Source: a virus
Lineage: Duplodnaviria > Heunggongvirae > Uroviricota > Caudoviricetes
DNA: 64,000 bases
Direction: 5' to 3' (one strand)
IMG/VR virus record: IMGVR_UViG_2671180676_000004
Location: 2,122 to 66,121 of that record
Positions 6,401 to 63,735 of the stretch are shown piece after piece (position 1 is the stretch's first letter; every line of letters begins with the position of its first letter). Position numbers and translations under genes: made by a program. The notes beneath the pieces are model-generated. The model worked only from the letters and a program-made list of their open reading frames with translations. It searched no databases and was not told where the DNA came from.

Positions 6401-6541
6401 CTGATTCCGCAGGTCCTGAATCAGTTCACGTTCCAGGTCCGATTCGCTCTGGTAGCTGTCGCTTGTTTGCTCAGCTTTGATGTACTTATCAAGGACGATA
6501 AAGTTATTGGATTCAGCAATGGTGTGTGTTTGATGAGTCAT
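3425..6541 (-). CDS. hsdR: type I restriction enzyme R subunit (type IC, EcoR124I-like)
   Basis: 1038-aa ORF; SF2 helicase motifs (TGSGKT Walker A, DECH box); last gene of minus-strand M-S-R order; length typical of type IC HsdR. Confidence 0.9.
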
Positions 6542-6663
6542 AGCGCATCCTTTGTGCCGCCTGGCAAGAGCCGGAAGGGCGTTAAGAGTGACTTCCGGCG
6601 CGTAAAAAAATAGTCTATATACTGACCGGGTGTTAAGGTGGCCCGATCGGTAGCAATGGTCAA

Positions 6664-20324: not shown

Positions 20325-20412
20325 GCAGGGAAATTTTCAGAAACGGCGAGGAACGTATTCATGAGCCGACGGGGAACGGCCAGGATTTTTTCGGGAAACG
20401 GCTGCATTCGCC
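20325..20412. repeat. second iteron-like array (three to four units, core GGGAAACGG)
   Basis: cagGGAAAtttt / cagAAACGGcgagg / cgGGGAACGGccagg / cGGGAAACGGctgc. Confidence 0.5.
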
Positions 20413-20863
20413 TTTATGTAGAAAAAACATCGGGAAGCTGGTGGAATCCAACCAGCGGTTGTCGGACAGGTGAGCGGGGAAAATTATGATGACTTTCGTC
20501 ACCTGAGACATCCAGATTTCTTTCGTAGCATAATTACATACGTGATTAAGTGGTGTGATTATGTGAAAAATCACGCGCACATAATACGCGAGCGGATACG
20601 GAACAAAACAAAATGCCGATCCGCGCCGACAAATAAACGCGGATCATAAAGCAAGACTAAAAGCCAATGATTAACCATACTCTATAGCGCAATATAACGC
20701 GTTTTAAGCGCGTTAATGTGTTAAGTAATGGGTATGTACTGGTAAGGATATAAAAGCGCGTCTATGGCGTTATTTTGGCGCTTATTTTTATGTTGTTGGA
20801 GTGAGTTAAAGACAATAAAAAACGCGCTAATGATGGCGCGTTATGGTGGGAGTATTGGAAACG

Positions 20864-20897
20864 AAAAAAGCGCCCATAGTGGGCGCTCGATTTTATT
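20864..20897. terminator. bidirectional terminator-like hairpin
   Basis: AAAAAA-GCGCCCA-tag-TGGGCGC-tcga-TTTTATTT; same stem reappears inverted at 21364-21382. Confidence 0.55.
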
Positions 20898-21123
20898 TGT
20901 GTAAACTGATTTTAAATCCCATTTCTACAAACGCTTTTAACATTAAAAATATATCAGCGTCGTTCACGTCTGCTTTTTTTCGCTCCTGGTCGCTCAATAA
21001 GTCAATTTTGCGCGTCGTTTCATCTATAAGCTCGACTGCGCGCCCAGCGTAACCAGCGATCCCAGCGATGCGATTAACATAATATTCATTATGGACGTTA
21101 ACGCCAGCGATAAGAACAAACAT
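20893..21123 (-). CDS. hypothetical protein (low-GC cassette)
   Basis: 76 aa; AAGGAG upstream on minus strand; bidirectional terminator-like hairpin 20864-20897 downstream. Confidence 0.35.
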   Translation of the reverse strand: MFVLIAGVNVHNEYYVNRIAGIAGYAGRAVELIDETTRKIDLLSDQERKKADVNDADIFLMLKAFVEMGFKISLHK

Positions 21124-21142
21124 GATTAAGCTCCTTAAAAAA

Positions 21143-21346
21143 TTAAATAGAATTTTGAAGTTTTCCGATTAATGCGCTTAAACGTAAGTATTCACGTTTA
21201 CGCTTGCAATCTCGCTTGCTGTTAAGCAAATCAGAAAACGTAAAATTTAATTGGTCGCGTTGCGCGATCAAATCATCGATTAATTCCAGTTTATAAGCGC
21301 GATACTTTGCGCGATATTCCGCGCGGATCTTGTCATAGCTGACCAT
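21143..21346 (-). CDS. hypothetical basic coiled-coil protein (low-GC cassette)
   Basis: Start taken at ATG 21346 (AAGGAG 8 bp upstream) rather than ORF-track start 21391, which would overlap hairpin 21364-21382. Confidence 0.35.
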   Translation of the reverse strand: MVSYDKIRAEYRAKYRAYKLELIDDLIAQRDQLNFTFSDLLNSKRDCKRKREYLRLSALIGKLQNSI

Positions 21347-21363
21347 TTTTAAAGCTCCTTTAA

Positions 21364-21382
21364 AGCGCCCACTATGGGCGCT
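21364..21382. terminator. hairpin with same stem as 20869-20887
   Basis: GCGCCCA-cta-TGGGCGC, downstream of minus-strand gene 21395-22045. Confidence 0.4.
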
Positions 21383-21394
21383 TGATTCCATTAA

Positions 21395-22045
21395 TTACGC
21401 TTTGAAAGCATCAGCTAAATAATTGTAGAAATCATTTTTAATGAAGCGATATTGCTGAGTACCAGCTTTCGCACTCCCAGCTCCTTTGACTTTTTCAACA
21501 AGTCCAAGACGTTCGCAAAGATTGATCAACTGGTTGGCTTGAGTATAGCCAGCGTCCAATTTAATTTCACACGCTTTTTTAGCTTCATTCATTAAATCGA
21601 AAACAGCGCCATTGGTGAACGTGTCGATCTCGTCGTTAATCATATCGATTAAAGCGAATACACGAGATCCAGACATATCAGCGATGGAATAAACGCATTT
21701 ACCAGATTTAATTGATTTAACCAGATAAACCAGTTTTTCCAGAGAATAACTATTAGTCATTGCATCACGAAAAAATACTTCTGGCGCTTGTTTGCTTGCT
21801 TTAATCGCATAGTAGAAAACAGAGCATAATTTTTCGTCTTCTACTGCGTTTACGACGTTGTTGATGAAGTAAGCAAGTTTAGTGGTCGCAGCTTGCATAT
21901 TTGCTTTGTCTGCTTTAGTGTGCGTACCATTTTTATAATGTTCGTTATATGTTTGAGTTGCCAGATCTGCTTTTTCGCGCAGTTCATCGGATACAATGGA
22001 AGCAGCTTCAATGATGGATTTTTTAGAAATGATAATGTTAGCCAT
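21395..22045 (-). CDS. hypothetical protein with C-terminal winged-helix-like segment (possible DNA-binding / replication-initiator-like)
   Basis: 216 aa; AAGGA upstream; C-terminal LINLCERLGLVEKVKG resembles a winged-helix recognition element; low-GC segment. Confidence 0.35.
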   Translation of the reverse strand: MANIIISKKSIIEAASIVSDELREKADLATQTYNEHYKNGTHTKADKANMQAATTKLAYFINNVVNAVEDEKLCSVFYYAIKASKQAPEVFFRDAMTNSYSLEKLVYLVKSIKSGKCVYSIADMSGSRVFALIDMINDEIDTFTNGAVFDLMNEAKKACEIKLDAGYTQANQLINLCERLGLVEKVKGAGSAKAGTQQYRFIKNDFYNYLADAFKA

Positions 22046-22328
22046 GATAATTTTTCCTTATGTAAATTTAAAATTTATTGTCGTTAGCGTCTTCGCTTTC
22101 GACGAGTTCAATTATCGATACGCGAAAAAAGATTGCAAGTGTTTTTTTAAAATTTTTTGCAGGGATGAAAGTCCTAGAAATAAAAGCGAGATCGTCGAAG
22201 GTGTTCCCTAAATAAATAATCGATTCCGGCTTTCGACCTTATATATATTTAGATTATTTGATTTATAGATATAAAGAAGTGATGTGAAAAATAATAACCG
22301 GACTTAGCCGGTTATTAACCTTATAGAT

Positions 22329-22637
22329 TTATTGAACAGACTCTACAGCCTTACGATTGGTGTCAAATAGCGCATCAACGAACTGTGCCGATGACTCGCT
22401 AGATTCGCAATCCAACATTGCCCGTTCTTCATTTGCCACTTTCTTACACAGTTCCACATTCTCACCTATCGCTTTTCCTGCTTTTACGGCTGCCGAAAAT
22501 TGATACATGCAAACTGATACATTCTGAGACGTTGAGCACACGTCATTCATCAGCGACTGAATGACAGGCTTATAGTCCATTGCATTTGCCGCAACTGAGC
22601 AAAGTAAAAATAATGGTGGTAACAATATCGATTTCAT
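22329..22637 (-). CDS. secreted Cys-containing small protein
   Basis: 102 aa; N-terminal signal peptide (MKSILLPPLFLLCSVAANA); hairpin 22296-22320 downstream. Confidence 0.45.
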   Translation of the reverse strand: MKSILLPPLFLLCSVAANAMDYKPVIQSLMNDVCSTSQNVSVCMYQFSAAVKAGKAIGENVELCKKVANEERAMLDCESSESSAQFVDALFDTNRKAVESVQ

Positions 22638-22640
22638 AAC

Positions 22641-23165
22641 TCAAAAAGGCAAAATTCGTTCAACCCAATCGAACAAAACAACTATTTTTCTACCGTTCTC
22701 GACACGTAGTGTAACCTGACAAGCATCTGCGCCTGCTGACACCCCCTCAATTTCACGGCCATCCGCCATGTACACCCTTATAGATTTGTTTGCTTTGTAG
22801 GCTTGGTTGCAAATTGCAAAAAAATCGCGGCGTGATGGCCGATTATCGACATAATCAGGGTGAACTGTTAGTCGACCTTTGAAATCGTGAGCGATACTGT
22901 CAACCACACCTGATTCAATTGTACTAATGCGTTCAAGTGGGAGCCTTATACGATTTTCTTTGTCAAAAGGGGCTGGGCAAAGGTCAACTTTGTTACGAGA
23001 TGGCATGAGGCCATAAACGTACATGCAAAACGCCTGGCCATCTTCGAGAGTGACCCTTACAGGAATTTGTTCTCTGCGCCAGAACATCAGTAGTTTTTCA
23101 ACGTTAGTGTAATCTCGCGGCCAGAGTTCAGCTTGGATACCGTAGGTAATATCTTTGGTTGTCAT
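22641..23165 (-). CDS. hypothetical protein
   Basis: Start taken at ATG 23165 (MTTKDITYG), 4 bp after lipoprotein gene stop; ORF-track start 23243 would overlap the upstream gene. Confidence 0.4.
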   Translation of the reverse strand: MTTKDITYGIQAELWPRDYTNVEKLLMFWRREQIPVRVTLEDGQAFCMYVYGLMPSRNKVDLCPAPFDKENRIRLPLERISTIESGVVDSIAHDFKGRLTVHPDYVDNRPSRRDFFAICNQAYKANKSIRVYMADGREIEGVSAGADACQVTLRVENGRKIVVLFDWVERILPF

Positions 23166-23169
23166 GTCA

Positions 23170-23592
23170 TCACAGAGTTGTTGGCAGAATGTCGATGTCA
23201 CCAGAATTGCTGGTGAACACCCTGAACGCTTTTGTGTCTCCATTCTTCAGAGTCGTTTCTCGCTCTTGACGAGCGGGGTTTAGAGCACATAAACCTGCAC
23301 CTTCAAGAGATGCACCCACAATTAATTCTCCGGCATTTAAATGGAAAGTCGCTTTTTCGCCTGTAGCCAGTTTTGCGACAGTTTCGCCGTTGATGAAAAT
23401 GGAAGCATCACATCCAGCTCCTACAAAACCTGTGTCTCTCATTACCACCAACGTAGCTGGCGCTGCGCTTTGATACTTGAACACTTTGGCCTGCGGTGCT
23501 GGTTTGGCGTCATGGATTGATATTGGGCGTGATTGGCACGCGGTAAGCATCAACACTGGTAACGTTAGTAGAGGGAGAAGCGAGTATTTCAT
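23170..23592 (-). CDS. lipoprotein
   Basis: Start at ATG 23592: MKYSLLPLLTLPVLMLTAC with lipobox LTAC; 140 aa. Confidence 0.5.
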   Translation of the reverse strand: MKYSLLPLLTLPVLMLTACQSRPISIHDAKPAPQAKVFKYQSAAPATLVVMRDTGFVGAGCDASIFINGETVAKLATGEKATFHLNAGELIVGASLEGAGLCALNPARQERETTLKNGDTKAFRVFTSNSGDIDILPTTL

Positions 23593-26932: not shown

Positions 26933-27594
26933 GCAAATACATCATCAACATATCGTTTCAGACACGCGTAAATAAAACCACGCGCACGTTGGAAATCGCT
27001 GAGTCGTTCGGGCTTGGCCTGGACGAAAAAGAGTGGACGCTTTACGACAATCTGGAGCTGGAAGTGAAGCAGGGCGATGTGGTGTACATCACCGGCCAAT
27101 CCGGTTCCGGCAAATCCGTTGTGCTGCGCGAGTTGCAACGACAGATGAAGGATGAAGGGCTGTCTGTAGCCTCCATCGATGATTTTACCTTCGATAATGA
27201 GGTTAACGTCATCGATCAGTTGGGCAAAACGACCAGTGATGCGCTTGGGTTGTTATCTATGGCTGGTCTGAACGATGCATATCTGTTTGTTCGCAAGCCT
27301 TCTGAAATGTCAGACGGCCAGAAATATCGTCTCAAGATTGCCAAACTGATTGAGTCAGGCGCTAAAGTGTGGGCTGCTGACGAGTTCGGCGCTGTTCTCG
27401 ACCGTGTAACCGCTCAGGTTGTGGCGTCTAACCTCCAGCGTGCCGCGCGAAAGGTTGGTGCGACGGTAATGGTGGCGACGACTCACGAAGACCTGAAGAA
27501 CGCGCTGCGCCCGGATATGCAGATCACCAAGCACTACAAAGAACGCGTGAAGGTGGAATATCACAATGGTAGTCATGATGAGGTCCATTCATGA
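26929..27594 (+). CDS. ABC-type ATPase (nucleotide-binding domain only)
   Basis: 221 aa; Walker A GQSGSGKS, signature-like SDGQKYR, Walker B VWAADEFG, H-loop TTHE; start overlaps previous stop (ATGA). Confidence 0.65.
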   Translation: MSKYIINISFQTRVNKTTRTLEIAESFGLGLDEKEWTLYDNLELEVKQGDVVYITGQSGSGKSVVLRELQRQMKDEGLSVASIDDFTFDNEVNVIDQLGKTTSDALGLLSMAGLNDAYLFVRKPSEMSDGQKYRLKIAKLIESGAKVWAADEFGAVLDRVTAQVVASNLQRAARKVGATVMVATTHEDLKNALRPDMQITKHYKERVKVEYHNGSHDEVHS

Positions 27595-28481
27595 CGGACA
27601 TCATCATTAAACGCTACCGCCCTGAAGAGTTTCCGCGTCATCTGGACTTTCTGGAGCGAATGACTGTTACAAAGGGAACTGTAGAGGACTGGCACGCTCT
27701 TAAGTCGCTTCACTACAAAACAGACGGCAAACCTTTCGCGCCAACTTACTATCGCTGCGAACTTGATGACCGTCTGGTGGGCGTCGTGGTTATGGCTTAC
27801 CCGAAACTACTGTTGGCACCTCGCCACCGCATGTTTCCTAAGTTGAAACCAACCACTAATACCACCGTGGCTAACCAGTACTGGGGTCGGTACGTGAATA
27901 ACAACTTTGCGGTGATCAGTCGCTCAGTTGTGGATACTCAGTATCGTGGCGTAGGCGTCTCTTATCGAATGATTAACCTGGTTAGCAGGATGCATGACCG
28001 GCCAATCATTGAGATCCAGTCCTCGATGAGCAAATACAATCCCTTCGCCATGAAAGCAGGGTTTAAGTTCATCCGCCCTGAGCGACCGAAGAGCTATGAA
28101 AGTGCACTGCGTGTATTCCAGCGCCATTTTCGTTCCGACCCGGGTGATAACGAGGCGATCGTCAAAGAGTTGTTCGCAATGAGCGAGTCTCGTCGTCGCC
28201 GTGCACTGCGTGATCTGGTGGCGGACTACCATAAGAACAGTTCCCTGGCAAAAGCTGGGCGGAATCGTGGCACGACGATTCAGGACATTGCCGACAGTCT
28301 GGTGGACGAGGCCAGCATTGTGAAGTTGCTCAAGGACATTCACAACCTGAGCTTTACGTCTCCGTTGTATGGGGTGTATCGAAACCCTGACTTTGGTCGT
28401 CGACTGCCTGACACGCTGCCACTGCTGGCATTCGACAAACAACCTTTGGATAAACCGTTAGAAATTGCTTTACCGGCATAA
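27591..28481 (+). CDS. GNAT-like acetyltransferase-domain protein with C-terminal extension
   Basis: 296 aa; start overlaps previous stop; QYRGVGVSYRMIN resembles the GNAT acetyl-CoA-binding Q/RxxGxG/A motif. Confidence 0.4.
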   Translation: MTDIIIKRYRPEEFPRHLDFLERMTVTKGTVEDWHALKSLHYKTDGKPFAPTYYRCELDDRLVGVVVMAYPKLLLAPRHRMFPKLKPTTNTTVANQYWGRYVNNNFAVISRSVVDTQYRGVGVSYRMINLVSRMHDRPIIEIQSSMSKYNPFAMKAGFKFIRPERPKSYESALRVFQRHFRSDPGDNEAIVKELFAMSESRRRRALRDLVADYHKNSSLAKAGRNRGTTIQDIADSLVDEASIVKLLKDIHNLSFTSPLYGVYRNPDFGRRLPDTLPLLAFDKQPLDKPLEIALPA

Positions 28482-28759: not shown

Positions 28760-28858
28760 GGTCTGGGAGCTTATTTAAAGACCTGCTTCTGTATATATAA
28801 ATAATAAGTAACTTATTAAATATATACGGAAGCAGGCTTAATAAGACATGCCCAGACC
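28760..28858. repeat. about 100-bp imperfect palindrome (long hairpin element, copy 1)
   Basis: outer arms GGTCTGGG / CCCAGACC, inner arms CCTGCTTCTGTATATAT / ATATATACGGAAGCAGG, centre ATAAGTAACTTAT. Confidence 0.6.
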
Positions 28859-28953: not shown

Positions 28954-29586
28954 ATGACGGTCGAAAAAGACGAGGTAAAAACTCGCCTGACACCAGCGGA
29001 GTGGGCCGAAGCTGAAGCCAAATGGACGTCAGGCGAATATACACTCTCAAAGCTGGAGGAAGAGTACGGCATTCGTCGTGAAACACTCTCCAGACATTTC
29101 AAAAAGCGAGGATTAGAGAAAGGCGCGGACTCTGTTGGGAAGATGGTTCGTGAGTCTCTTAAATCTGACGCAGAGCTTCGCGCTAAAGCCCGTGCGGAAA
29201 AGATAGAAGAACGTCGTACACGTTATGACGGCTGGGCGTATGCGTTGGGGCAGATGGTGATGGTCGAAGTCACTACGGCCAAACGTGAGGGTAAGCCTTT
29301 AGGGGCGATTGAGGATTCTCTCAAGAGCTTACAGAGAGCCAGTAATACCCTTGCAAAATGCTTTGAAGTTTCGTCCAAAGCATTGGGCATGGATCATGCG
29401 GAAAATGACGAGGAAGAAATTCCGAACCTGGTATTTGGTGAGCTTACGCCTTCCCAGGTGGCGAAATTACGTCAGGAAGACGACGAGCCTGAAATCATCG
29501 ATGACGAATTGCTTGAGACGTTGGAAGAAGAAGCTCTAAGCGAATTTGATGCGACAGATGATGGAAGTGAAGGGGAGGACGAATAA
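28954..29586 (+). CDS. terminase small subunit (putative)
   Basis: 210 aa directly upstream of and overlapping terminase large subunit; acidic C-terminus; two palindromes (28875-28889, 28900-28914) upstream. Confidence 0.5.
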   Translation: MTVEKDEVKTRLTPAEWAEAEAKWTSGEYTLSKLEEEYGIRRETLSRHFKKRGLEKGADSVGKMVRESLKSDAELRAKARAEKIEERRTRYDGWAYALGQMVMVEVTTAKREGKPLGAIEDSLKSLQRASNTLAKCFEVSSKALGMDHAENDEEEIPNLVFGELTPSQVAKLRQEDDEPEIIDDELLETLEEEALSEFDATDDGSEGEDE

Positions 29587-51323: not shown

Positions 51324-54300
51324 ATGTGGTACAGGGAAGGTACTATCACATTTACACAGGGTAGCAATACTCTGGTTGGGGCAGGGACAGCCTGGAACGT
51401 AACAGCTAATGGTGTGTTGCCGGGGATGATCGTCATTGGCCCCGACAATAAGCTGTATGAGATCAAGCGCGTAATAAGCGATACGAATATTGTTCTCTCA
51501 GAACCTTATACCGGCGAAACTCAGTCTGAGGTTCCGTGCCGAATCATTACGACCTATGAAGGCGACTTAACACAGTTTAGCGCGCGCTTTACAGCACTAA
51601 TGTCGCGTATGTCGGCTGATTCCAAGTCTATGCGCAGTTGGTTGACTGCTCTGGATGAGGTGACAATCGAGCGTGAAGACGGTACAGAAGTAACCGTTAA
51701 GCCGCTAATGCAGATCGTCAACGAGCACAACGAAAACGTTGAGTGGTATAAAAATAACACTGACGCGATTGATGCTGCTGGCGACAAAGCTCGTGAGGCG
51801 GCGGCCAGTGCTGCCGCAGCAGCAGAAAGCGCCAATACCGCTGGAGAAAAAGCCTCTCAAGCGTCTCAAAGTGCATCCGCTGCGGCATCCTCACAAAGTG
51901 CCGCAAGTGCGAGTGCAACTGCTGCGAAAAAATCTGAAACGAATGCCGCAGCGTCACAACAATCAGCAGCCACTTCTGCATCCACCGCGACCACGAAAGC
52001 GTCAGAAGCTGCCACCTCAGCCCGGGATGCGGCGGCCTCAAAAGAGGCAGCGAAATCATCAGAAACGAGCGCAGCCTCGAGCGCCAGTAATGCCGCTTCC
52101 TCGGCAACGGCGGCAGGAAATTCCGCGAAGGCGGCAAAAACGTCCGAGACGAACGCCAGGTCTTCTGAAACGGCAGCGGGACAGAGCGCCTCGGCTGCGG
52201 CAGGCTCAAAAACAGCGGCTGCGTCGTCTGCCAGTGCCGCGTCAACAAGTGCCGGGCAGGCCTCAGCCAGTGCCACCGCCGCCGGAAAATCGGCAGAAAG
52301 TGCCGCATCGTCTGCTTCAACAGCCACAACGAAGGCTGGCGAAGCCACTGAACAGGCCAGCGCAGCAGCGAGGTCTGCTTCCGCAGCGAAGACATCCGAA
52401 ACGAACGCGAAAGCGTCGGAAACCCGTGCAGAATCCTCAAAAACGGCAGCCGCATCGTCCGCCAGTTCGGCAGCGTCATCGGCATCATCGGCGTCTGCTT
52501 CAAAAGATGAGGCGACCAGACAAGCGTCCGCAGCGAAGGGCAGCGCCACGACAGCATCCACGAAAGCAACAGAGGCGGCAGGCAGTGCGACGGCAGCATC
52601 TCAGAGCAAAACTGCTGCTGAATCCGCTGCGACCCGTGCGGAAGCTGCTGCTGATCGTGCTGAAGAGATTGCCGGTGCAGTTGCGATGGAAGATGCAAGC
52701 CTTACCACCAAAGGTGTTGTGAAACTTAGCAGTGCTGTCGACAGCACCAGTGAATCTTTAGCCGCGACACCAAAAGCAGTTAAGACCGCATATGATAATG
52801 CTGAAAAACGACTACAGAAGGATCAGAATGGTGCTGATATCCCCGACAAGGGCCGCTTCCTGAATAACATTAATGTTTACAGCAAAGGTGAAGTGGATCA
52901 GAAAAAGGGGATGCGATACGTTGTGGTCAATGCCCCGGCGGGTGTCCAGGAAGGTAAATATTATCCGTTAGTGATAAAAAGGAATGACAGCCATCGGGCA
53001 TCCCGCGTTGTCATTTCAACGCCAAGTCGCACAGCTAATCACAGAATGAATAACTGTGAGTTTAATGGTTTTGTTTGCGCAGGCGGCTGGACGGACCGGG
53101 GTAGCTATGCCTGTGGTATGTTCTGGGCTTATTCATCATCGGAACGCGCTATTCATTCCATTCTGATGAGTAATAAAGGCGATACCGTAGACAGCGTATT
53201 CTATATAGAAGGTGGGGCATTTCCCGTAGAGGTCTTTTTAGAAGAAGGACTTTCTGTTACTGCTCCTGCTTCTGATTATGTTGTTGCTGAAACGACTTAT
53301 AAATTTGGCGCAACTGATCCTTATTCTGAATCAGTTGCGGTAAATTTAATTTTAGATTTTAAACAAGGTAATGGATTTTATAGTTCGTATCCTGTTTTGA
53401 GTAAGTCAGACATTAGCGGTAATAAGGTTTACGCTAATGATGAAGTTATTGTCCGTAGTCAGAATGCGTTAAGGATGATTGCTGGCGATTACGGTGTCAT
53501 ATGGCGAAATGATGGAGCAAATACTTACTTGCTCATGACTGATAAAGGCGACCAGTACGGTGGCTGGAACGGTCTTCGACCATTTGCAGTAAATAACGCA
53601 ACAGGTGAAGTGACGATCAATACACCACTTAATTCTCCAAAAGGGGTTAAGGGGAACTCTGATACAGCTACGAAACTTCAGACTGCAAGAAAAATATCCG
53701 GTGTTCCATTTGATGGCTCTACTGATATCACTTTAACCGCCGCGCATGTTGCCGCTTTCGCAAGAAGAGCAACAGGGTCATATGCTGATGCTGATGGCGG
53801 CGTGCCGTGGAATGCTGAATCTGGTGCTTATAATGTAACTAGAACGGGCGACAGTTATATTCTTGCCAACTTTTATACTGGTGTAGGTAGTTGCCGTACG
53901 CTTCAAATTAAGGCTCACTATAAAAATGGTGGGTTGTTTTATCGTTCATCTCGCGATGGAAGTGGTTTTGAAAGTGGTTGGGAGCAGGTTTACACGACTG
54001 GATTTAGACCTCAGCCGGCTGATATAAACGCACCAACCGCTGCCGCCGGATGGTTAAATAGTGGTAACGGAACAGCATTTACGACTGCTCAGTTTATAAC
54101 GTGGCTAAATAATCAGGGTGCATTTTCAAACAAATATTGGATTGCACGGTGCTCATGGACTTACGCCAACAATAATTATATAGACGACACTGGATGTGGC
54201 AGGATCGATCTATCTGGTTCCGTGATTGAGGTGTTTAGTAATAAGTCAACAAGCCACTACACTATTCGTGTTACAACGACAACAACATCGGGCCATGGTG

Positions 54301-55613
54301 GTGTTAATAATGCGGAGTTTATTTATGTGTACAATGGCAGTGATTACTCGCCAGGCTGGCGTCGTTCTTATAATACTAGAAACAAACCAACAGCTTCTGA
54401 TGTAGGAGCATTATCGCTTTCTGGAGGAGCGTTAACTGGCGGATTAACTGCTGCTGGCGAGATTATTTCAAAATCGGCGAATGGTCTGCGCATTGCCTAC
54501 GGAAACTACGGATTCTTTATCCGAAACGATGGTTCAAGCACATACTTCATGTTGACCGATTCGGGTAACAGCCTGGGAACCTATAATAGTTTAAGGCCGC
54601 TTATCATTAACAATGCCAATGGTGCTGTTAGGATCGGTAATGGACTCAATGTTACTGGCGGCATCAATGGTAGTTTGGACGGTAATGCTTCAACAGCTAC
54701 GAAGTTGCAAACAGCGAGAAACATCAATGGTGTTAAGTTTGATGGTTCAGGCGATATCAATATTAATACATTGGTATCTCGTGGCCGAGTTACGGCGTTA
54801 AGCGGCTCTACTCAAGGCACTGCTGGCATTCAAATGTATGAGGCGTACAACAATAGCTACCCGACCATGTATGGCAACGTATTGCACATGAAAGGTGCGA
54901 GTGCTGCTGGTGAGGGAGAGTTGCTTATTGGCTGGAGTGGTACGAGCGGTGCACATGCGCCAGTTTTCATTCGCTCACGAAGAGATAACACAGGTGCGGC
55001 ATGGTCAGCGTGGGCGCAGGTATATACCGCTAAGGATTCAATCCCTGGTGTGAATACAACTGGTAATCAGAACACTACTGGTAATGCCGCAACCGCCACA
55101 AAATTGCAGACAGCAAGGAAAATTGCTGGTGTGGCATTTGATGGCTCTGCCGATATAACTTTGACTGCGGCTAACCTTAATGCTTACACGAAAACAGAGG
55201 TAACAAACCTTCTAAGTTCCTATGTGAAGAGCAGTGCTCTTCCAAGCATGACTGTGCGAACTTCCTCTGTTTCAGGTGGGGATATGGGCATGAGCTTGTC
55301 CGCATTCATTAGCCACCTAAAATCAAATGGGGCGTTTAGCAAAAGTTATTGGATTGGCTTTGGCGATGCTATGGGATTCAATGCTGGCAGTATCAACAAT
55401 ATAACGGGATTTGGTGCTGTAGAATTAGCAGAATCTATAATCGAAGTTTTTAATCTACCTAACGGTGATTATACAATTCGTTTAACAACGTCACATAAAG
55501 CTGACTACGGTGGAGTTACAAACGCAATCCTCGTTTATCACTACCGTAGTAATAGAAGTCCGTCAGGTCAATGGCTGAAATTTGCAGGTACTGTTGGGGC
55601 AACAAGTAACTGA
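51324..55613 (+). CDS. side tail fibre protein
   Basis: 1429 aa; 300-aa Ala/Ser-rich low-complexity region; three copies of ATKLQTARxIxGVxFDGSxDI motif in C-terminal half. Confidence 0.8.
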   Translation: MWYREGTITFTQGSNTLVGAGTAWNVTANGVLPGMIVIGPDNKLYEIKRVISDTNIVLSEPYTGETQSEVPCRIITTYEGDLTQFSARFTALMSRMSADSKSMRSWLTALDEVTIEREDGTEVTVKPLMQIVNEHNENVEWYKNNTDAIDAAGDKAREAAASAAAAAESANTAGEKASQASQSASAAASSQSAASASATAAKKSETNAAASQQSAATSASTATTKASEAATSARDAAASKEAAKSSETSAASSASNAASSATAAGNSAKAAKTSETNARSSETAAGQSASAAAGSKTAAASSASAASTSAGQASASATAAGKSAESAASSASTATTKAGEATEQASAAARSASAAKTSETNAKASETRAESSKTAAASSASSAASSASSASASKDEATRQASAAKGSATTASTKATEAAGSATAASQSKTAAESAATRAEAAADRAEEIAGAVAMEDASLTTKGVVKLSSAVDSTSESLAATPKAVKTAYDNAEKRLQKDQNGADIPDKGRFLNNINVYSKGEVDQKKGMRYVVVNAPAGVQEGKYYPLVIKRNDSHRASRVVISTPSRTANHRMNNCEFNGFVCAGGWTDRGSYACGMFWAYSSSERAIHSILMSNKGDTVDSVFYIEGGAFPVEVFLEEGLSVTAPASDYVVAETTYKFGATDPYSESVAVNLILDFKQGNGFYSSYPVLSKSDISGNKVYANDEVIVRSQNALRMIAGDYGVIWRNDGANTYLLMTDKGDQYGGWNGLRPFAVNNATGEVTINTPLNSPKGVKGNSDTATKLQTARKISGVPFDGSTDITLTAAHVAAFARRATGSYADADGGVPWNAESGAYNVTRTGDSYILANFYTGVGSCRTLQIKAHYKNGGLFYRSSRDGSGFESGWEQVYTTGFRPQPADINAPTAAAGWLNSGNGTAFTTAQFITWLNNQGAFSNKYWIARCSWTYANNNYIDDTGCGRIDLSGSVIEVFSNKSTSHYTIRVTTTTTSGHGGVNNAEFIYVYNGSDYSPGWRRSYNTRNKPTASDVGALSLSGGALTGGLTAAGEIISKSANGLRIAYGNYGFFIRNDGSSTYFMLTDSGNSLGTYNSLRPLIINNANGAVRIGNGLNVTGGINGSLDGNASTATKLQTARNINGVKFDGSGDININTLVSRGRVTALSGSTQGTAGIQMYEAYNNSYPTMYGNVLHMKGASAAGEGELLIGWSGTSGAHAPVFIRSRRDNTGAAWSAWAQVYTAKDSIPGVNTTGNQNTTGNAATATKLQTARKIAGVAFDGSADITLTAANLNAYTKTEVTNLLSSYVKSSALPSMTVRTSSVSGGDMGMSLSAFISHLKSNGAFSKSYWIGFGDAMGFNAGSINNITGFGAVELAESIIEVFNLPNGDYTIRLTTSHKADYGGVTNAILVYHYRSNRSPSGQWLKFAGTVGATSN
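51780..52700. repeat. Ala/Ser-rich low-complexity coding region of side tail fibre
   Basis: recurrent KTSETNA / SASAAA units; generates spurious long ORFs in other frames and on the opposite strand. Confidence 0.7.
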
Positions 55614-57265: not shown

Positions 57266-57787
57266 TTATTCTTCGAACAATTTTTCGATAGATTTTGTAG
57301 GATAGAACAAAGAACGCTCGTTGTTACCAACCAGCTGGATAAAGCCTAAACTTTTATAAAACGCCTTGGCTTTGTCATTTAACGCCTCAACGAAAAGTCC
57401 ATGAATGCCTACAGCAAGAGATGCATTGTACACAACGCGCATTGCATGTGTTACAAGCATTGAGCCAAATCCTTGACCTTGAAGGGACTTGTCCAAAGCC
57501 AGCCTACCCAAAGTAACACTTGGAACATTCCGATAAGGTACCTTCTTTTGCTGGCTTCTTGAAGGTAAGGACTCCTTTTCAAAGCAGCTGCCTGACAAAG
57601 TGTAATACCCTAACACTTTTGGTCTGTCTTCTTTCGTGAAAAGCACATAAGCGCGAAGAATTTTTCCCTCATGCTGCCTTTTTAAGTGGTTGGTTAAAAA
57701 GGCATTTAGTGATTCTTCACCGCAATCAAAACCATTCAAATCATAATCTTTCTCTCCAGAGAAAATTTCTATCTTTATATTATCCAC
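57266..57787 (-). CDS. GNAT-family toxin (TacT/AtaT-type aminoacyl-tRNA acetyltransferase)
   Basis: 173 aa; GNAT motif QGQGFGSMLV; immediately downstream of DUF1778-type antitoxin gene. Confidence 0.75.
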   Translation of the reverse strand: MDNIKIEIFSGEKDYDLNGFDCGEESLNAFLTNHLKRQHEGKILRAYVLFTKEDRPKVLGYYTLSGSCFEKESLPSRSQQKKVPYRNVPSVTLGRLALDKSLQGQGFGSMLVTHAMRVVYNASLAVGIHGLFVEALNDKAKAFYKSLGFIQLVGNNERSLFYPTKSIEKLFEE

Positions 57788-57794
57788 GAGTAAA

Positions 57795-58103
57795 CTACTC
57801 CATGCTTTTCAGACGATCAGCAGCTCGTTTCAGCTTGTCGTTCGGTGCCGGAGGATTGCTTATAGCGTCCATAACCAGATTCCAGGATTCTTCATTCAGA
57901 ACTAGTCTACGGTGTTGCTCTATAACTTTCACGGCACGTTCAGATGCACTGCTAACCATAAACTGAGTAATGCTCTGGTTAGACATTGCGGCAGCTTCCT
58001 CGATGATGCTTTTATCGTCATCGGTTAATCTCAAATCGATGCGCTGCTTTTTTAGTGCTGACATGTATTCCTCCTGATGGCCGTGATGTAGGAAGGCCAT
58101 CAA
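57795..58103 (-). CDS. DUF1778-type (TacA-like) antitoxin
   Basis: About 90-100 aa (real start may be internal ATG at 58064); RHH-like N-terminus KKQRIDLRLTDDDK; classic partner of GNAT toxins. Confidence 0.7.
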   Translation of the reverse strand: MMAFLHHGHQEEYMSALKKQRIDLRLTDDDKSIIEEAAAMSNQSITQFMVSSASERAVKVIEQHRRLVLNEESWNLVMDAISNPPAPNDKLKRAADRLKSME

Positions 58104-58333
58104 TCTCCTCTGTTCAAACTGAGTTTTCGACTCAAAAATTACTTTAAAAGGCTATAGCCCATTACGTGTGCATTATCAAATTGTGTACGGCATATCACCG
58201 TACTTGTAATATAGAGGTCATTGTTACTTTTTTCAACAGACAAATACAAGCTATGATTGCCAATTGTTAATCACAACCTACCATTTAACCTTTACACCGC
58301 AGCCGTAGGCATTTAGGCTATATCACATATAAG

Positions 58334-58348
58334 AAAACAAGTTGTTTC
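58334..58348. promoter_or_regulatory. palindromic operator-like site
   Basis: AAAACAA-G-TTGTTTC upstream of parA ATG 58383. Confidence 0.5.
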
Positions 58349-58382
58349 AGACGATAATTATATACGCAAAGGGAACTCTCCA

Positions 58383-59051
58383 ATGACCAAGATCTTTGTG
58401 GTTGGCGGCACAAAGGGCGGGCCTGGCAAATCCACCGTTGCCCAGCAAATTGCCGTTTGCCTGAAAGTCAAAAAGAAGAAGAAGGTTTATATTACCGATA
58501 TAGATATTCAGCGCACGACAACGAGCTGGTGTGAAGACCGTCGACAGAACGAAGACCTTGAGCTGATTCCTTTTGCATACGTTCAGGATGACATCATTAA
58601 GCACCTAAAATCGCTTCAGGGTAGAGCTGAGTTTGTAGTGGTAGATGCTGGTGGCTTCGACTCCGAAATTCAGCGACAAGCGATGCTGATGGCTGACGTT
58701 ATCATTATCCCGCTGCGTCCTAAGCGTCGTGATTTGAAATCTTTACGTGACATCGATCCTATTATCGACAATGTTCGCAATGTAAACGATAAAGTGAAGG
58801 TCCGCGCGGTCATGAACCAGTGCCCGGCTTTGCCATCACAAGTGTCTCGCATTCTGGCGGCTAAAGAGATTGTCGAGACGTTTGGCATCGAGTCTGCGCC
58901 AGTCAATCTATATAACCGCAACGTCTACGATGATGCGGAAGAGTCTGGTCGTTCTATCTTCGAAATGACCGGTAGCGAGCGCGACAAAAAGGCGGAAGCC
59001 GAGTTTGAAGAATTTGTAGATTATCTGTTGAGTCTGGAGGAAGAAGAATAA
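58383..59051 (+). CDS. parA: ParA-family partition ATPase (small, type Ib)
   Basis: 222 aa; deviant Walker A GGTKGGPGKST; palindrome 58334-58348 upstream. Confidence 0.8.
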   Translation: MTKIFVVGGTKGGPGKSTVAQQIAVCLKVKKKKKVYITDIDIQRTTTSWCEDRRQNEDLELIPFAYVQDDIIKHLKSLQGRAEFVVVDAGGFDSEIQRQAMLMADVIIIPLRPKRRDLKSLRDIDPIIDNVRNVNDKVKVRAVMNQCPALPSQVSRILAAKEIVETFGIESAPVNLYNRNVYDDAEESGRSIFEMTGSERDKKAEAEFEEFVDYLLSLEEEE

Positions 59052-59410
59052 TGTCCATGAAAATGGGTGACCTAGCAAAGCGCAAAGAGCCTGATGCACC
59101 GGCTAAGAACACAACTCCTTTGCGCCAACCAGTCAGACCACAAGGACGCCCGACTCGTGGCAAAGAGAAAATTAAAAGCCGCACCATGTCACTGGAAGAC
59201 GAATACTTCGAGCTTCTGGAAATGATGAAGTTTATCCCTCGTTTCGAGAAGTTCACCCGCTCTGATGTGATTCGTGCTGCTATTTTCCATCTGGCAGAGA
59301 AGTCGCCGCAGGAAATCGAGGATATCGTGAAACTTAACGAGGCGATCACTGCTGCCGACGTCACGATGCGTACCGATGAAATCAAACGCGAGTTGATGAA
59401 GAAAGGTTAA
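59051..59410 (+). CDS. small partition partner protein (ParG/RHH-like, tentative)
   Basis: 119 aa, basic disordered N-terminus, start overlaps parA stop; terminator 59418-59442 downstream. Confidence 0.45.
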   Translation: MSMKMGDLAKRKEPDAPAKNTTPLRQPVRPQGRPTRGKEKIKSRTMSLEDEYFELLEMMKFIPRFEKFTRSDVIRAAIFHLAEKSPQEIEDIVKLNEAITAADVTMRTDEIKRELMKKG

Positions 59411-59417
59411 TTTTATT

Positions 59418-59442
59418 GAGGTGCTGCTTGGCACCTCTTTCT
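59418..59442 (+). terminator. intrinsic terminator after partition operon
   Basis: GAGGTGC-tgcttg-GCACCTC followed by TTTCT. Confidence 0.5.
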
Positions 59443-59454
59443 ATAGGTTCCCTA

Positions 59455-60174
59455 ATGCTCTACAAATATATTGGAAGTGAAGATTCGCAAAAAGTGTTAC
59501 GTAACCTCAAACGGTTTGTAGAGGACGGCACTATCTCTGCTAGCGCACCTTCTTCATTCAACGACCCATCAGAGTTCAAAGTTTCGATAACGATGGGAGG
59601 TACAGAAGTGGAGCGCCGGAAACACTTTGAAGACAATGGATGTAAGGATTTTTCCTTTGAAGACTGGGATGCTGTAGCTCCTGAAGCTGCAAAATCGTTG
59701 GCTGTGGATTTGCGGAAAGAATCATTAGGGGCTTTTGGTGTGGTGTGCTTGTCACCAAACGAAGATAACATCTTGATGTGGTCACATTACTCAGTGTCGC
59801 ATAAAGGTTTCTGCATAGGCTTTGATGATGATTTTGTTACCTCTATTGAGGGGTATCACAGCTTTGATAATGTGAAATATATACCTTCTGTTCCCGTGTT
59901 CGATGAAGTTACAGATGAGTTTAAGGTACTTTTTGATAAGCTCTTTTTCTACAAGCACGAATGCTGGAAATATGAGGAAGAACAAAGGGTTATTACTAAA
60001 AAAATAGGCGCTCAGGCATTTGATAAGAAATATATTAGAGAGATCATTCTTGGACATAACGTTTCTCCTGAAGTAGAAGAATATGCCCGGACACAGCTAG
60101 ACACGAGCATCGAGGTTTACAAAATGAGTACACCTGATGATGGTTATCTTCTTGTCAAAGAAAAGCTGAAGTAG
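59455..60174 (+). CDS. hypothetical protein (low-GC cargo gene 1)
   Basis: ATG 59455 after terminator hairpin; motifs FNDPSEF and MWSHYSVSHKGFCIGF; family not confidently recognised (possibly DUF2971-like). Confidence 0.4.
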   Translation: MLYKYIGSEDSQKVLRNLKRFVEDGTISASAPSSFNDPSEFKVSITMGGTEVERRKHFEDNGCKDFSFEDWDAVAPEAAKSLAVDLRKESLGAFGVVCLSPNEDNILMWSHYSVSHKGFCIGFDDDFVTSIEGYHSFDNVKYIPSVPVFDEVTDEFKVLFDKLFFYKHECWKYEEEQRVITKKIGAQAFDKKYIREIILGHNVSPEVEEYARTQLDTSIEVYKMSTPDDGYLLVKEKLK

Positions 60175-60240
60175 CTCCAGACTTTCCTCAAATGATTATG
60201 TTGGGCGCTTTTCTTATTGAACTGGTTAGTGAGGCTAATA

Positions 60241-61413
60241 ATGGATTTGTTCTCAACCAAAATAGCAAAAAACAAGCTGCACGAATCTTTTAAACAGATT
60301 TATCAAGATAATACATATGCTCCAGTAAGAGAAGTGATACAGTCGTGGGGGCGTGGGTTACTGGAGCGTAGCGGTGAGCAGACTAAATTCGTTAAAGAGT
60401 TTCAGACAACCTTCAATTCCGCCTTATGGGAATTGTATCTGAACGAAATGTTTATTCGTCTCGATTATTCTGTCGACTACACAAAAGACAGTCCCGATTT
60501 CTGTGTTACTACACCGTCAGGCTACCAGTTTAACGTCGAAGCTGTGATATCAGATCGGCCACATAATCCACCTGCAGGTGCTCTTTTTAGCGAATTAAAA
60601 TTCAAACATCAATCAACGCTAAAATTAATCGGAAAAATCAAAGACAAACATGATCTTTTTACAGGAGTTAATGGCAAAAAATTCCCGTACTCTACGATGT
60701 CTCATGTAGTTAATAAGCCGTTTGTTCTGGCGCTTGCACCCTTTGACTCCGATTTATCATTGTCTCAAAATAACACAATCATCAATCGAGTGTTGTTTGG
60801 CATTGAGGAACCTACCACCAGAAATTTGGTGACTGGCAGCCAAACTAAAGTTACCTCAATCAAAAAGAATGAAGACGTTGAAATTCCATTAGGTATATTT
60901 ACTAACGACTCATATAAAGAAATAAGTGCGGTTATTTTCTCCACCACCGGCACTTTTGGAAAAGCCGTGGTTCAAAGCGGTATCGGTAGATATGTAAGGT
61001 CAACACGATATCGAGCCATTGATGTGAATGATTTCATCGCCAATGAAGGGATGAAAAACGAGGGAAAGCACACACAAAGGATAGGACCTGATCATTTCAT
61101 CACTACATATCGGCATTTTTTAAATAACGAAGTCACTGGTGCGGATATTGTAGTTTGTCATTCCACTGCTCATGAAGAGACGCACTTTGACGGCCTTCAT
61201 ATTTACTACAATCCTTTTGCGACAGTGCCACTGGACAGAAATATTTTCTTCCCCCCAGAGATAACTCATAATTTTTACGATATGGAAAAAGAACAGTCTG
61301 TTCAGAATCATCCTGATGGAGCGCTGGTATCTAGACAGGTTTTTGAACCAACTAGAGCACATTTTAGGTATATCATGAAACATTGGTTTCCAGGCTTTCT
61401 AAAAGATGTTTAA
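60241..61413 (+). CDS. hypothetical protein (low-GC cargo gene 2)
   Basis: ATG 60241 with GAGG upstream; 390 aa; followed by long hairpin 61439-61492 plus T-run. Confidence 0.4.
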   Translation: MDLFSTKIAKNKLHESFKQIYQDNTYAPVREVIQSWGRGLLERSGEQTKFVKEFQTTFNSALWELYLNEMFIRLDYSVDYTKDSPDFCVTTPSGYQFNVEAVISDRPHNPPAGALFSELKFKHQSTLKLIGKIKDKHDLFTGVNGKKFPYSTMSHVVNKPFVLALAPFDSDLSLSQNNTIINRVLFGIEEPTTRNLVTGSQTKVTSIKKNEDVEIPLGIFTNDSYKEISAVIFSTTGTFGKAVVQSGIGRYVRSTRYRAIDVNDFIANEGMKNEGKHTQRIGPDHFITTYRHFLNNEVTGADIVVCHSTAHEETHFDGLHIYYNPFATVPLDRNIFFPPEITHNFYDMEKEQSVQNHPDGALVSRQVFEPTRAHFRYIMKHWFPGFLKDV

Positions 61414-61438
61414 GCATCCTGCTGGTTGAATTTGGAAC

Positions 61439-61492
61439 CTGCTTCTGTATATAAATACTAAGTTACTTATTATTATTTATACGGAAGCAGGT
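61439..61492. repeat. long hairpin element, copy 2 (same arms as 28782-28836)
   Basis: CCTGCTTCTGTATATA ... TATACGGAAGCAGG with centre TAAGTTACTTA, followed by TCTTTTTCT. Confidence 0.6.
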
Positions 61493-61601
61493 CTTTTTCT
61501 ATGCCAACTTCCCAGACACATTCCCTTCCGTTTCCACTTCCAAAAACTGCCACCAGTCGCTATCATCCGCTCATTGCAATAAGTAAGTAACTACCTATCT
61601 G

Positions 61602-62351
61602 GTGAGCCACATGAGCCAAATCTTTTTTGATACCATTGACAACGACCAGTACGACTTCATGACAGAGTGGAATACCGCTGTTATGGACAAGTGGGTCGCT
61701 GAAAACATTGGTTTGTCGCGCTGCAAAGACGAGGCTGAACTCTTCGAGACGAAGTGGTTTGATTACCGCGATATGCATCCTCTCATGGCCACCTGTCTGT
61801 TTACGGAGGCGTACAAACGTCAGTACTCAAATATCATGCTGACGCACGGTCGCGAACACTTTGAAACAGCTCCGTTCACCACCGGGTTAAAACGCCTGCC
61901 TTATCAGGAGTTGTCGACTGCCAATAAAACGTCGCTATGGAAAGCACGCCAGTTTGCTGATCGCTATTGCTGTTCATACGACTACTTTATCTCCACGGTT
62001 CTTTCCGCAGCTGCACGGCGTCTGTGGGACAAGTTGCCGCGCCCACAGCATTTATGGCAGCCAGAACTGATTGAGATATTCGAAGAGAAATTATCCAGAC
62101 GCGCAACAACCCGTCTGGATGACTCTCTGGTTAGCTTTAAGCATATGGGAGACATGCAGTTCAACCCGATTCAGGAAAGCTATTTTGAGTGGATTCTGGA
62201 GCGTTTGCGCATCATCCCCCGCAGCAAGCGCATACGCGCAATTTTCTCTGCTATCTGGCTAATGGAAATCGTTCCAGAGCGCCTTATTTCCGCCCACTTT
62301 CCAGAAGAACTGGAAGAAGCACGGCGGTTTATTGATCCCCTATCTAATTAA
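61602..62351 (+). CDS. hypothetical protein (replication-region)
   Basis: 249 aa directly upstream of DnaB-like helicase. Confidence 0.4.
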   Translation: MSHMSQIFFDTIDNDQYDFMTEWNTAVMDKWVAENIGLSRCKDEAELFETKWFDYRDMHPLMATCLFTEAYKRQYSNIMLTHGREHFETAPFTTGLKRLPYQELSTANKTSLWKARQFADRYCCSYDYFISTVLSAAARRLWDKLPRPQHLWQPELIEIFEEKLSRRATTRLDDSLVSFKHMGDMQFNPIQESYFEWILERLRIIPRSKRIRAIFSAIWLMEIVPERLISAHFPEELEEARRFIDPLSN

Positions 62352-62361
62352 CTAATACTAG

Positions 62362-62376
62362 AAAACAATTTGTTTA
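62362..62376. promoter_or_regulatory. palindromic operator-like site
   Basis: AAAACAA-T-TTGTTTA; the surrounding 40 bp is near-identical to the region upstream of ATG 540. Confidence 0.5.
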
Positions 62377-62394
62377 AAAAACAAAGGAAAGCAC

Positions 62395-63735
62395 ATGACC
62401 GAACTTTGCCATACAGGACGCGGGCTGTCCGAAGAGTTTGATGAAGATTTCCAGAACAGACTGACGGCATATTTTTGTCGTGATCACGAGTTTCTTACTC
62501 GTGCGGGAGATCTGGTTGTGCCTAGCCAATTTGCCAATGCGGCCAATGCCATATTGGTTAATATGGTTTCGGGCTATTACCGTATGTACAAGAGCGCGCC
62601 TTCTTCATCTGCGATTCTGGATATGCTTAAGCGCGCGAAACGCGATAAGACCATCCGTGAGGAACTCTTCCCGGATGTTGTTGCTGCGTTTAAGCGCATC
62701 CTTGCAGAAAAATTGTCTGATACCTCGTACATGGTTGACCAGGTATCCACATTCGCAAAAAGTGTAGCGTTTGATGATGCTCTGATTAAAGCTGCTGAAC
62801 TGAAAGAGAAGGGCGACTTTCAGGGGGCGATGGCAATCATGGCCAAGGTTCAGCAGATAGGCTCGAACGAAGCGACCGGAATCTATGACTACTACACCTC
62901 CGCAAGTGAGCGATTGAAAGCGCGTGAATATGAGGCTTCAGAGGAGTATGTGCCAAACAGCATTACAACTGGACTCCCTCTGCTCGATAGGTTGCTGTAC
63001 CAAAAAGGCTGGGCGAAGCGTGAAATGGTGCTCTTCATGGGGTTCGCTAAATCCGGCAAATCGACCGCAATGGGTGAGTTTTCCATAAACGCAACGCTTG
63101 CTGGCTACAATGTTCTGTATCTCTCGCTGGAGGTTCACACCACCATTTTATCCGACCGTTTTGATGCAAGATTGTCGGAGACAGAAATGTCCAAGCTGGT
63201 GGAACGGCGCGATGAGGTTCATCGTAAGTTGGCAGAGTTGGGAGCCACGAAGGGGATTGGTAGTTTGTGGGTGGTTGAGCGTCCGTCAGGAAGTATGTCA
63301 CCGGCAGATCTGGACCGTATGCTTAACAGCATGAAAGCCAACGGCATGGTGCCTGACATGGTTGTTGTCGACTACGCAGATTTGATGCGTGCCAGTTATG
63401 ACCTTCGTGATGATCGCGCCAACATTCGTAGTATCTACACCGATTTACGTGCTCTTTATGACAAGCATAACGTTGCTGGGATCACGGCATCGCAGACAAA
63501 CCGTGAAGGTGGCGCGTCAGAAGTTGCCACAATGATGCACGCTGCCGACAACATCGAAAAAGTACGTATTGCTGACCTGGTAATAACGATCAACAAAACC
63601 GAAGAAGAAGAAGCGAAAGGAGAGGCTCGTCTCTACTTTGCTGGTTCACGTAACCAGCAGGGAGGGATCAGCATTCGCGTTAAACAAAACCTCGAACAAA
63701 TGCGCTTCATTGAGCGAATCTTAGACGTTACCTAA
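62395..63735 (+). CDS. DnaB-like replicative helicase
   Basis: 446 aa; Walker A GFAKSGKST, Walker B VVVDYADLM; palindrome 62362-62376 and AGGAAAGCAC before ATG; terminator 63742-63764 downstream. Confidence 0.6.
   Translation: MTELCHTGRGLSEEFDEDFQNRLTAYFCRDHEFLTRAGDLVVPSQFANAANAILVNMVSGYYRMYKSAPSSSAILDMLKRAKRDKTIREELFPDVVAAFKRILAEKLSDTSYMVDQVSTFAKSVAFDDALIKAAELKEKGDFQGAMAIMAKVQQIGSNEATGIYDYYTSASERLKAREYEASEEYVPNSITTGLPLLDRLLYQKGWAKREMVLFMGFAKSGKSTAMGEFSINATLAGYNVLYLSLEVHTTILSDRFDARLSETEMSKLVERRDEVHRKLAELGATKGIGSLWVVERPSGSMSPADLDRMLNSMKANGMVPDMVVVDYADLMRASYDLRDDRANIRSIYTDLRALYDKHNVAGITASQTNREGGASEVATMMHAADNIEKVRIADLVITINKTEEEEAKGEARLYFAGSRNQQGGISIRVKQNLEQMRFIERILDVT

Follow-up and report, generated by a model that had tools for sequence, protein, structure and literature searches.

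A DUF2971 and PD-T7-5 gene cassette in a variable cargo slot of an SSU5-like phage-plasmid

The window analysed here is a stretch of 64,000 nucleotides from a Caudoviricetes record (IMG/VR IMGVR_UViG_2671180676_000004, positions 2,122 to 66,121), and the cassette of interest consists of two genes on its + strand, at 59455-61413, between the partition genes and the replicative helicase gene. The window is an SSU5-like Escherichia coli phage-plasmid, since the 6.6 kb around the cassette are 100% identical to pUTAK-6-1, a 111-kb non-mobilizable E. coli plasmid, 97% identical to Escherichia phage Cyrano and 83% to Salmonella phage SSU5, and since its open reading frames (ORFs) include a 1,429-residue tail fibre, parA and a DnaB-like helicase, with endolysin and spanin genes annotated in Cyrano at the matching place. 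The two cassette ORFs are open at 59416-60174 and 60217-61413. ATG starts at 59455 and 60241 yield proteins of 239 and 390 residues, and both starts coincide with the RefSeq gene calls of pUTAK-6-1 (3756-4475 and 4542-5714 of the compared stretch). An initial annotation, made by a model from the letters and an ORF list, had the ORFs, their coordinates and the 390 residues of the second protein right, but gave the first protein 240 residues. It also described the cassette as AT-rich, and the comparison of composition bears this out: its GC content is 0.398 against 0.463 for the window (standard deviation 0.029 for windows of the same size), a value as low being reached by only 2.0% of 1,959-bp windows, and GC at third codon positions is 0.37-0.40, where 43 ORFs average 0.48. 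The lowest GC of the window is found at about 20.3-23 kb and not in the cassette. The features of the locus are collected in Table 1.

Table 1. Features at and around the cargo slot, in coordinates of the window.
Feature	Coordinates	Strand	Evidence
parA, ParA/MipZ-type partition ATPase, conserved left backbone	58383..59051	+	Pfam MipZ, AAA_31, CbiA, ParA
parB-like small partition gene; stop codon 59408-59410 is the left slot border	59051..59410	+	homology to every slot variant stops at or just past the stop codon
Variable cargo slot, here with the two-gene cassette	59411..61436	.	blastn breakpoints 59410-59478 and 61437
Intrinsic-terminator-like hairpin behind parB, sequence specific to this cargo variant	59418..59437	+	8-bp stem with 5 GC pairs, then TTTCT
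Gene 1, 239-residue DUF2971 / PADLOC PDC-S31 protein, DarT-like ADP-ribosyltransferase fold, candidate single-gene defence	59455..60174	+	
Intergenic spacer, 66 bp, Shine-Dalgarno GAGG at 60231-60234, 6 nt 5' of the gene 2 ATG	60175..60240	+	
Gene 2, 390-residue PD-T7-5-family protein, putative N-terminal PD-(D/E)xK nuclease fold, C-terminal beta-rich domain	60241..61413	+	
Long hairpin (61437-61492) and T-run, probable cargo-transcript terminator and conserved right slot border	61437..61499	+	
Conserved backbone gene, right slot flank	61602..62351	+	phrog_2500, E = 8e-113
DnaB-like replicative helicase, backbone	62395..63735	+	Pfam DnaB_C, AAA_25

Homology to relatives ends at the parB stop and returns at 61437, the first base of the long hairpin. 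On the left, each cargo variant brings its own GC-rich hairpin, and the sequences of these hairpins differ; in the window it is the one at 59418-59437, after the parB stop, so the cassette does begin behind a partition-operon terminator, as had been proposed. The right end was likewise placed correctly at a long hairpin, and this hairpin (61437-61492) turns out to be the conserved right border of the slot. It is an inverted repeat with a perfect-arm core of 15 nt inside a longer stem, and it folds with a free energy of -25.2 kcal/mol (z = -5.65), which none of 200 shuffled sequences equals. Its description as a shared element is justified in two senses, as it is kept at this position in the slot variants that were aligned or compared and as it has a second copy in the window, at 28782-28836, with the same CCTGCTTC...GAAGCAGG stem. 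The second copy is intergenic, between the + strand ORFs 27591-28481 and 28954-29586. The slot-border hairpin appears to be a terminator element that the phage-plasmid reuses.

Between the two genes, the terminator scan finds nothing on the + strand of the spacer. When gene 2 is compared between its differing contexts, homology begins only about 15-20 nt 5' of its ATG, which indicates that gene 2 comes without its own promoter. A promoter scan gave matches no commoner than in shuffled sequence, and in a known-RNA search of 58000-62500 no match reaches its own gathering score. Genes 1 and 2 are probably transcribed together, the transcript ending at the hairpin of the right border.

SSU5-like phage-plasmids have a cargo hotspot in the interval 59411-61436. 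The flanks of this interval are found in 264 of 5,426 complete E. coli genomes, always on plasmids, and mapping of presence and absence at this site places the cassette in 12 of these 264 elements, so that it is far from universally conserved; an alignment extends across it in 11 of 701 related plasmids. At least nine cargo states have been seen. Cyrano and CP061757 carry a lone DUF2971 allele, 39-41% identical to gene 1, SSU5 carries three small ORFs together with DUF2971, and the slots of the Cronobacter plasmid pCS1 and of Salmonella contain a PD-T7-5 homologue alone. Other relatives have a 564-residue KAP-type P-loop NTPase matching PDC-S49, or a minus-strand GIY-YIG protein matching PD-T4-3. 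Read as a listing of cargoes and not as an enrichment statistic, the slot thus holds PDC-S31, PD-T7-5, PD-T4-3-like and PDC-S49 members, the remainder being unassigned to any family. Four cargoes match no Pfam or PADLOC family: L108:2263-3430 (250 and 140 residues), L109:2272-3345 (357 residues, - strand), L110:3512-4189 (225 residues, - strand, beside IS3) and the three small SSU5 ORFs (L003:1342-2678). These are candidates for undescribed defence genes. The proposal that foreign, defence-type cargo sits here between partition and replication genes therefore stands, with a variable slot, a PD-T7-5 member and a DUF2971/PDC-S31 protein to show for it.

No meaningful flanking direct repeats, insertion sequence ends or attC-like sites were found around the slot. 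Because such sites are absent, homologous recombination in the conserved flanks would be the simplest mechanism for swapping its contents. The slot resembles the defence hotspots of phage P2 and its satellite P4, which also have a conserved flanking backbone, many mutually exclusive cargoes, a mixture of known and unknown defence genes and a low GC content in the cargo; it differs in that the host element is a phage-plasmid and that the slot lies between partition and replication genes. According to a 2025 preprint, SSU5-group phage-plasmids of E. coli and Shigella carry PD-T7-5 and PD-T4-3; an integron paper mentions SSU5 in passing only. No paper found in the literature search treats this slot as a hotspot.

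The initial annotation held that neither protein could be named to a family with confidence. This is not the case: gene 1 belongs to DUF2971/PDC-S31 and gene 2 to PD-T7-5. For gene 1, its loose association with DUF2971 was correct, the match to Pfam PF11185 scoring 30.1 bits against a cut-off of 22, and four PADLOC PDC-S31 models also match, the best being PDLC04990 (E = 4.7e-38). Across 45 homologues of gene 1 there is no variation at W109-S110-H111-Y112, Y173-E174 and R178, and very little at E176. A survey of ADP-ribosyltransferases (ARTs) in Legionella describes DUF2971 as an ART of the H-Y-E clade, with a strictly conserved tyrosine and an ExE motif, and the ART fold, conserved tyrosine and ExE motif of gene 1 agree with that description. 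The protein is a candidate DarT-like ADP-ribosyltransferase with a candidate role against phages. Like DarT of the DarTG system, gene 1 has a DarT-like fold, but their sequence identity is 9-16% and gene 1 contains large helical inserts; with Pfam, neither gene 2 nor the flanking genes show a macro domain, and hence no DarG macrodomain antitoxin adjoins gene 1. Only one DUF2971 defence is validated, the Lactococcus system Aristaios, a single gene of 316 codons that acts by abortive infection and affects phage transcription. With Aristaios and the PDC-S31 proteins, gene 1 shares the PDC-S31 and PF11185 matches, the ART fold and the form of a single gene on a mobile element. Aristaios itself is larger and comes from a Gram-positive host; what it has in common with gene 1 in sequence is the DUF2971 domain. 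PDC-S31, a PADLOC candidate, is not mentioned in the literature that was searched. Beyond the slot, P2-like E. coli prophages carry a lone DUF2971 allele, 52% identical to gene 1, between their tail-fibre assembly and tail-sheath genes (L093-L097:6001-6726), a position which would correspond to the second, Z/fun, defence locus of P2.

Gene 2 is a full-length member of the PD-T7-5 family. It matches the PADLOC model PDLC04110 with E = 4.2e-139, residues 1-371 aligning to profile positions 1-342 of 346; a further match, to the PADLOC model of PD-T7-1, covers the N-terminal 241 residues, and there is no Pfam or NCBIfam match. All 40 homologues compared keep residues E64, D86 and E100. The gene is a diverged allele, with 80% identity to its nearest relative and 76% to a large chromosomal E. 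coli cluster. The prototype comes from E. coli UMB0934 as a single coding sequence (27110-28283) annotated as a nuclease, and a clone of it that included 143 bp upstream and 119 bp downstream was scored protective (Vassallo et al., 2022); a review assigns a PD-(D/E)xK domain to the family. Gene 2 is like this prototype in its length, equal at 390 residues, in its match to the full profile and in its location on a mobile element, and unlike it in its diverged sequence and in its place behind a DUF2971 gene. Sequence searches for solved structures found none for the family of either gene. A PD-T7-5 homologue with 67% identity lies 46 bp downstream of a Peptidase_U49 gene (L113:3013-5173, L114:663-2823). 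Peptidase_U49 is the family of Lit, a phage-exclusion protease, and is another defence-type neighbour of a PD-T7-5 homologue.

Cassette and slot together amount to genuine, horizontally exchanged defence cargo in an SSU5-like phage-plasmid hotspot. The initial annotation had gone further and treated the pair as a two-gene module. Its defence character is upheld, but the cassette is more likely a stack of two autonomous single-gene anti-phage systems in the cargo hotspot, a reading that we hold with reasonable confidence because each family occurs without the other. DUF2971 is present in 309 plasmids, as against 14 records whose nuclease shares 60% identity or more with gene 2. DUF2971 stands without the nuclease in Cyrano, SSU5, CP061757 and the P2-like prophages; the nuclease is the only cargo of the slot in Cronobacter and Salmonella, and it is also found by itself in an E. 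coli P4-like element, next to smpB. Partners also come and go between close relatives: the paired nuclease cluster P0009 and the cluster P0013, which includes the unpaired gene of Cronobacter pCS1, are 96% identical. An apparent pairing of P0013 with a Cronobacter DUF2971 protein (P0133) was dropped, as plasmid pCS1 has the nuclease alone. Farther away, at 79 PD-T7-5 loci in species-representative genomes of other species, a DUF2971 hidden Markov model finds no member within 6 kb, and a Pfam scan of the 51 same-strand ORFs upstream of PD-T7-5 at these loci finds neither AbiGi nor DUF2971; these ORFs encode methylases, type I restriction-modification, SIR2, HEPN and T5orf172 proteins, and others.

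Several points weigh against this reading. Of the 12 protein clusters in the nuclease subclade with at least 73% identity to gene 2, 9 are immediately preceded, on the same strand and at 41-87 bp, by an ART-like gene (AbiGi or DUF2971), which exceeds what simple stacking predicts. The N-terminal domain of gene 2 is a putative PD-(D/E)xK nuclease fold without the canonical lysine of the (D/E)xK motif (E100-A-V), for which K82 and K128, invariant in the 40 homologues, are candidate replacements, and its C-terminal domain matches nothing. In Enterobacteria, DUF2971/PDC-S31 is a candidate defence family only, and the promoter scan finds no promoter between the parB terminator and gene 1.

The excess of ART-like neighbours is what could be expected of one cooperative two-gene system, in which the ART-like protein is sensor, regulator or second effector to a PD-T7-5-type nuclease. 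We consider this unlikely. The layout resembles that of lactococcal AbiG, described in the literature as a genuine two-component system (AbiGi and AbiGii), and the combination of AbiGi with PD-T7-5 in other Enterobacterales would then be a sister arrangement. In five clusters of the subclade, a true AbiGi (PADLOC E about 1e-28) lies directly upstream on the same strand with a gap of 64-87 bp, and these AbiGi-linked nucleases belong to different elements, namely Proteus and Yersinia prophages, the genomic island of P0010 and further contigs; four clusters have DUF2971 upstream with a gap of 41-68 bp. The spacer without a + strand terminator and the likely lack of a promoter in front of gene 2 would also suit a single system. 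AbiGi and AbiGii, of about 249 and 397 residues, are close in size to the products of genes 1 and 2. Both AbiG and the cassette thus consist of two same-strand genes of similar sizes; the literature assigns the first gene to the ARTs, placing AbiGi and DUF2971 in one ART-like superfamily, and close relatives of gene 2 do lie behind true AbiGi genes.

The models, on the other hand, do not identify gene 1 as AbiGi or gene 2 as AbiGii. Gene 1 matches neither PF10899 nor the PADLOC AbiGi model, its BLASTP comparison with a true AbiGi gives E = 0.076, and hhalign sets DUF2971 against AbiGi with a probability of 6%, aligning the YE-E-R motif alone on a thin AbiGi profile of three sequences. Gene 2 has no AbiGii match in Pfam or PADLOC, and for AbiGii itself no similarity is reported beyond a weak resemblance to a predicted HEPN protein. 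The PD-T7-5 prototype protects when cloned alone; the lone nucleases of the slot and the P4-like element, and the 96%-identical nucleases that differ in having a partner, also speak against a joint system; DUF2971, for its part, mostly occurs without the nuclease. All DUF2971-nuclease pairs sit in this single slot, of which DUF2971 is a common resident, and the AbiGi-linked nucleases are 87-90% identical among themselves. The adjacency to DUF2971 may therefore stem from only one or two insertions, and the association with ART-like genes as a whole from only two ancestral events. A supposed transfer of the pair into a non-SSU5 element (contigs L105-L107, with a CbtA toxin gene upstream) was also dropped, as blastn shows slot-type flanks on both sides. 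Two stacked single-gene systems thus remain the better account of the cassette.

The AbiGi-nuclease pairs are an observation in their own right. With a 64-87 bp gap and no AbiGii, they are found at L086:5187-7176, L087:5249-7182, L100:6249-8173, L111:236-2167 and L112:200-2123; the members of the P0010 cluster are mostly from Klebsiella and Enterobacter, and two further contigs represent P0012, whose cluster includes Morganella, and P0015. No description of an AbiGi and PD-T7-5-like arrangement was found in the literature. In these contexts the slot hairpin and about 30 nt beyond it also lie 3' of the nuclease gene, which suggests that nuclease and terminator have been exchanged between SSU5-like and other mobile elements. 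A broader idea, to which we give little weight, is that PD-T7-5-type nucleases of Enterobacterales are commonly the second gene of a two-gene module behind an ART-like gene. In prophages and islands this ART-like gene might then be AbiGi, whereas SSU5-like phage-plasmids would use DUF2971. Such a module, were it to exist, would have an AbiG-like architecture with a PD-(D/E)xK nuclease in place of AbiGii, and the ART-like partner might tune sensing, range or toxicity; this too we think doubtful.

A mechanism can be proposed for the two systems. While the tools themselves yield the assignments to families and folds, the boundaries, the counts and the contexts, we infer the catalytic roles, trigger and target, as well as co-transcription and exchange by recombination; anti-phage activity as such is known from the literature, for the PD-T7-5 family and Aristaios only. 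Once infection is sensed, possibly through the C-terminal beta-rich domain, the putative N-terminal PD-(D/E)xK domain of gene 2 (E64, D86, E100) would cut nucleic acid. Gene 1 would likewise act during infection, transferring ADP-ribose from NAD+ to a nucleic acid or a protein, and might thereby block phage gene expression, as proposed for Aristaios. Together the two proteins would protect the lysogen, and hence the phage-plasmid, against competing phages. That the cassette is instead not anti-phage at all (an addiction or toxin module, a means of excluding competing plasmids, or a host-modifying ADP-ribosylating effector beside a recombination or replication nuclease) would fit its place between maintenance and replication genes, beside a TacAT-type toxin-antitoxin pair, and the roughly 18% of DUF2971 proteins predicted to be effectors in the Legionella survey; it is nevertheless very improbable, given the direct anti-phage phenotype known for the family of gene 2, the defence genes among the alternative cargoes and homologue neighbours (restriction-modification, SIR2, HEPN, ScoMcrA-like HNH, Peptidase_U49), the DUF2971 genes that P2-like prophages carry at the presumed P2 defence hotspot, flanked by tail-fibre assembly and sheath genes, and the variability of the slot, which makes a backbone function unlikely. 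Neither protein has housekeeping homology.

Part of this is already known. The PD-T7-5 family has been validated and reported on SSU5-group phage-plasmids, and both genes can be flagged by standard defence annotation tools. The interest lies mainly in the unexplored diversity of the slot's cargo and in the recurrent pairing of ART-like genes with nucleases. Clinical E. coli, Shigella, Salmonella and Klebsiella commonly harbour SSU5-like phage-plasmids, and the present data add evidence that these elements carry exchangeable anti-phage cargo at a defined site. This site is easy to locate computationally, from the parB stop to the conserved hairpin, and with several of its cargoes lacking a family, it can be mined for new defence genes, as the P2 and P4 hotspots were. 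The cassette itself is a convenient natural construct in which to study an enterobacterial DUF2971 protein and the modulation of PD-T7-5 nucleases by ART-like proteins.

The surrounding backbone is well conserved. On the left, parA is kept at 96-99% in relatives, and the parB-like gene has no Pfam match; on the right, the phrog_2500 gene adjoins the slot in all relatives examined. Farther left, on the - strand, lies the TacAT-type toxin-antitoxin locus (57266-58103, GC 0.40), in which 57266-57787 encodes the GNAT acetyltransferase toxin and 57795-58103 the TacA/DUF1778 antitoxin. In most relatives with the cassette there is no homology left of about 58276, and two contigs (L091 and L103) have other genes there. 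The region between the lysis genes and parA, where TacAT sits, has the appearance of a second variable slot.

A type I restriction-modification system occupies 3425-9461 on the - strand. Its hsdR (3425-6541) and hsdS (6664-7902) match PADLOC and Pfam models, and the ORF at 7899-9461 (- strand) is presumably hsdM. Together with the cassette, this system brings the defence modules of the phage-plasmid to at least three. GC in the window is lowest at 20350-23250, a patch that includes two - strand ORFs. One, at 21395-22045 (GC 0.378), has no family match; the other, at 22641-23243, is a FljA-like 'repressor of phase-1 flagellin' (PF03614, E = 2.5e-84), an unexpected host-modulating gene for a phage-plasmid. 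Finally, the tail-fibre ORF (51324-55613) contains a long low-complexity stretch rich in alanine, serine and threonine, especially at 52000-52600, which produces a local GC peak of 0.62-0.64 and a strong AT skew.

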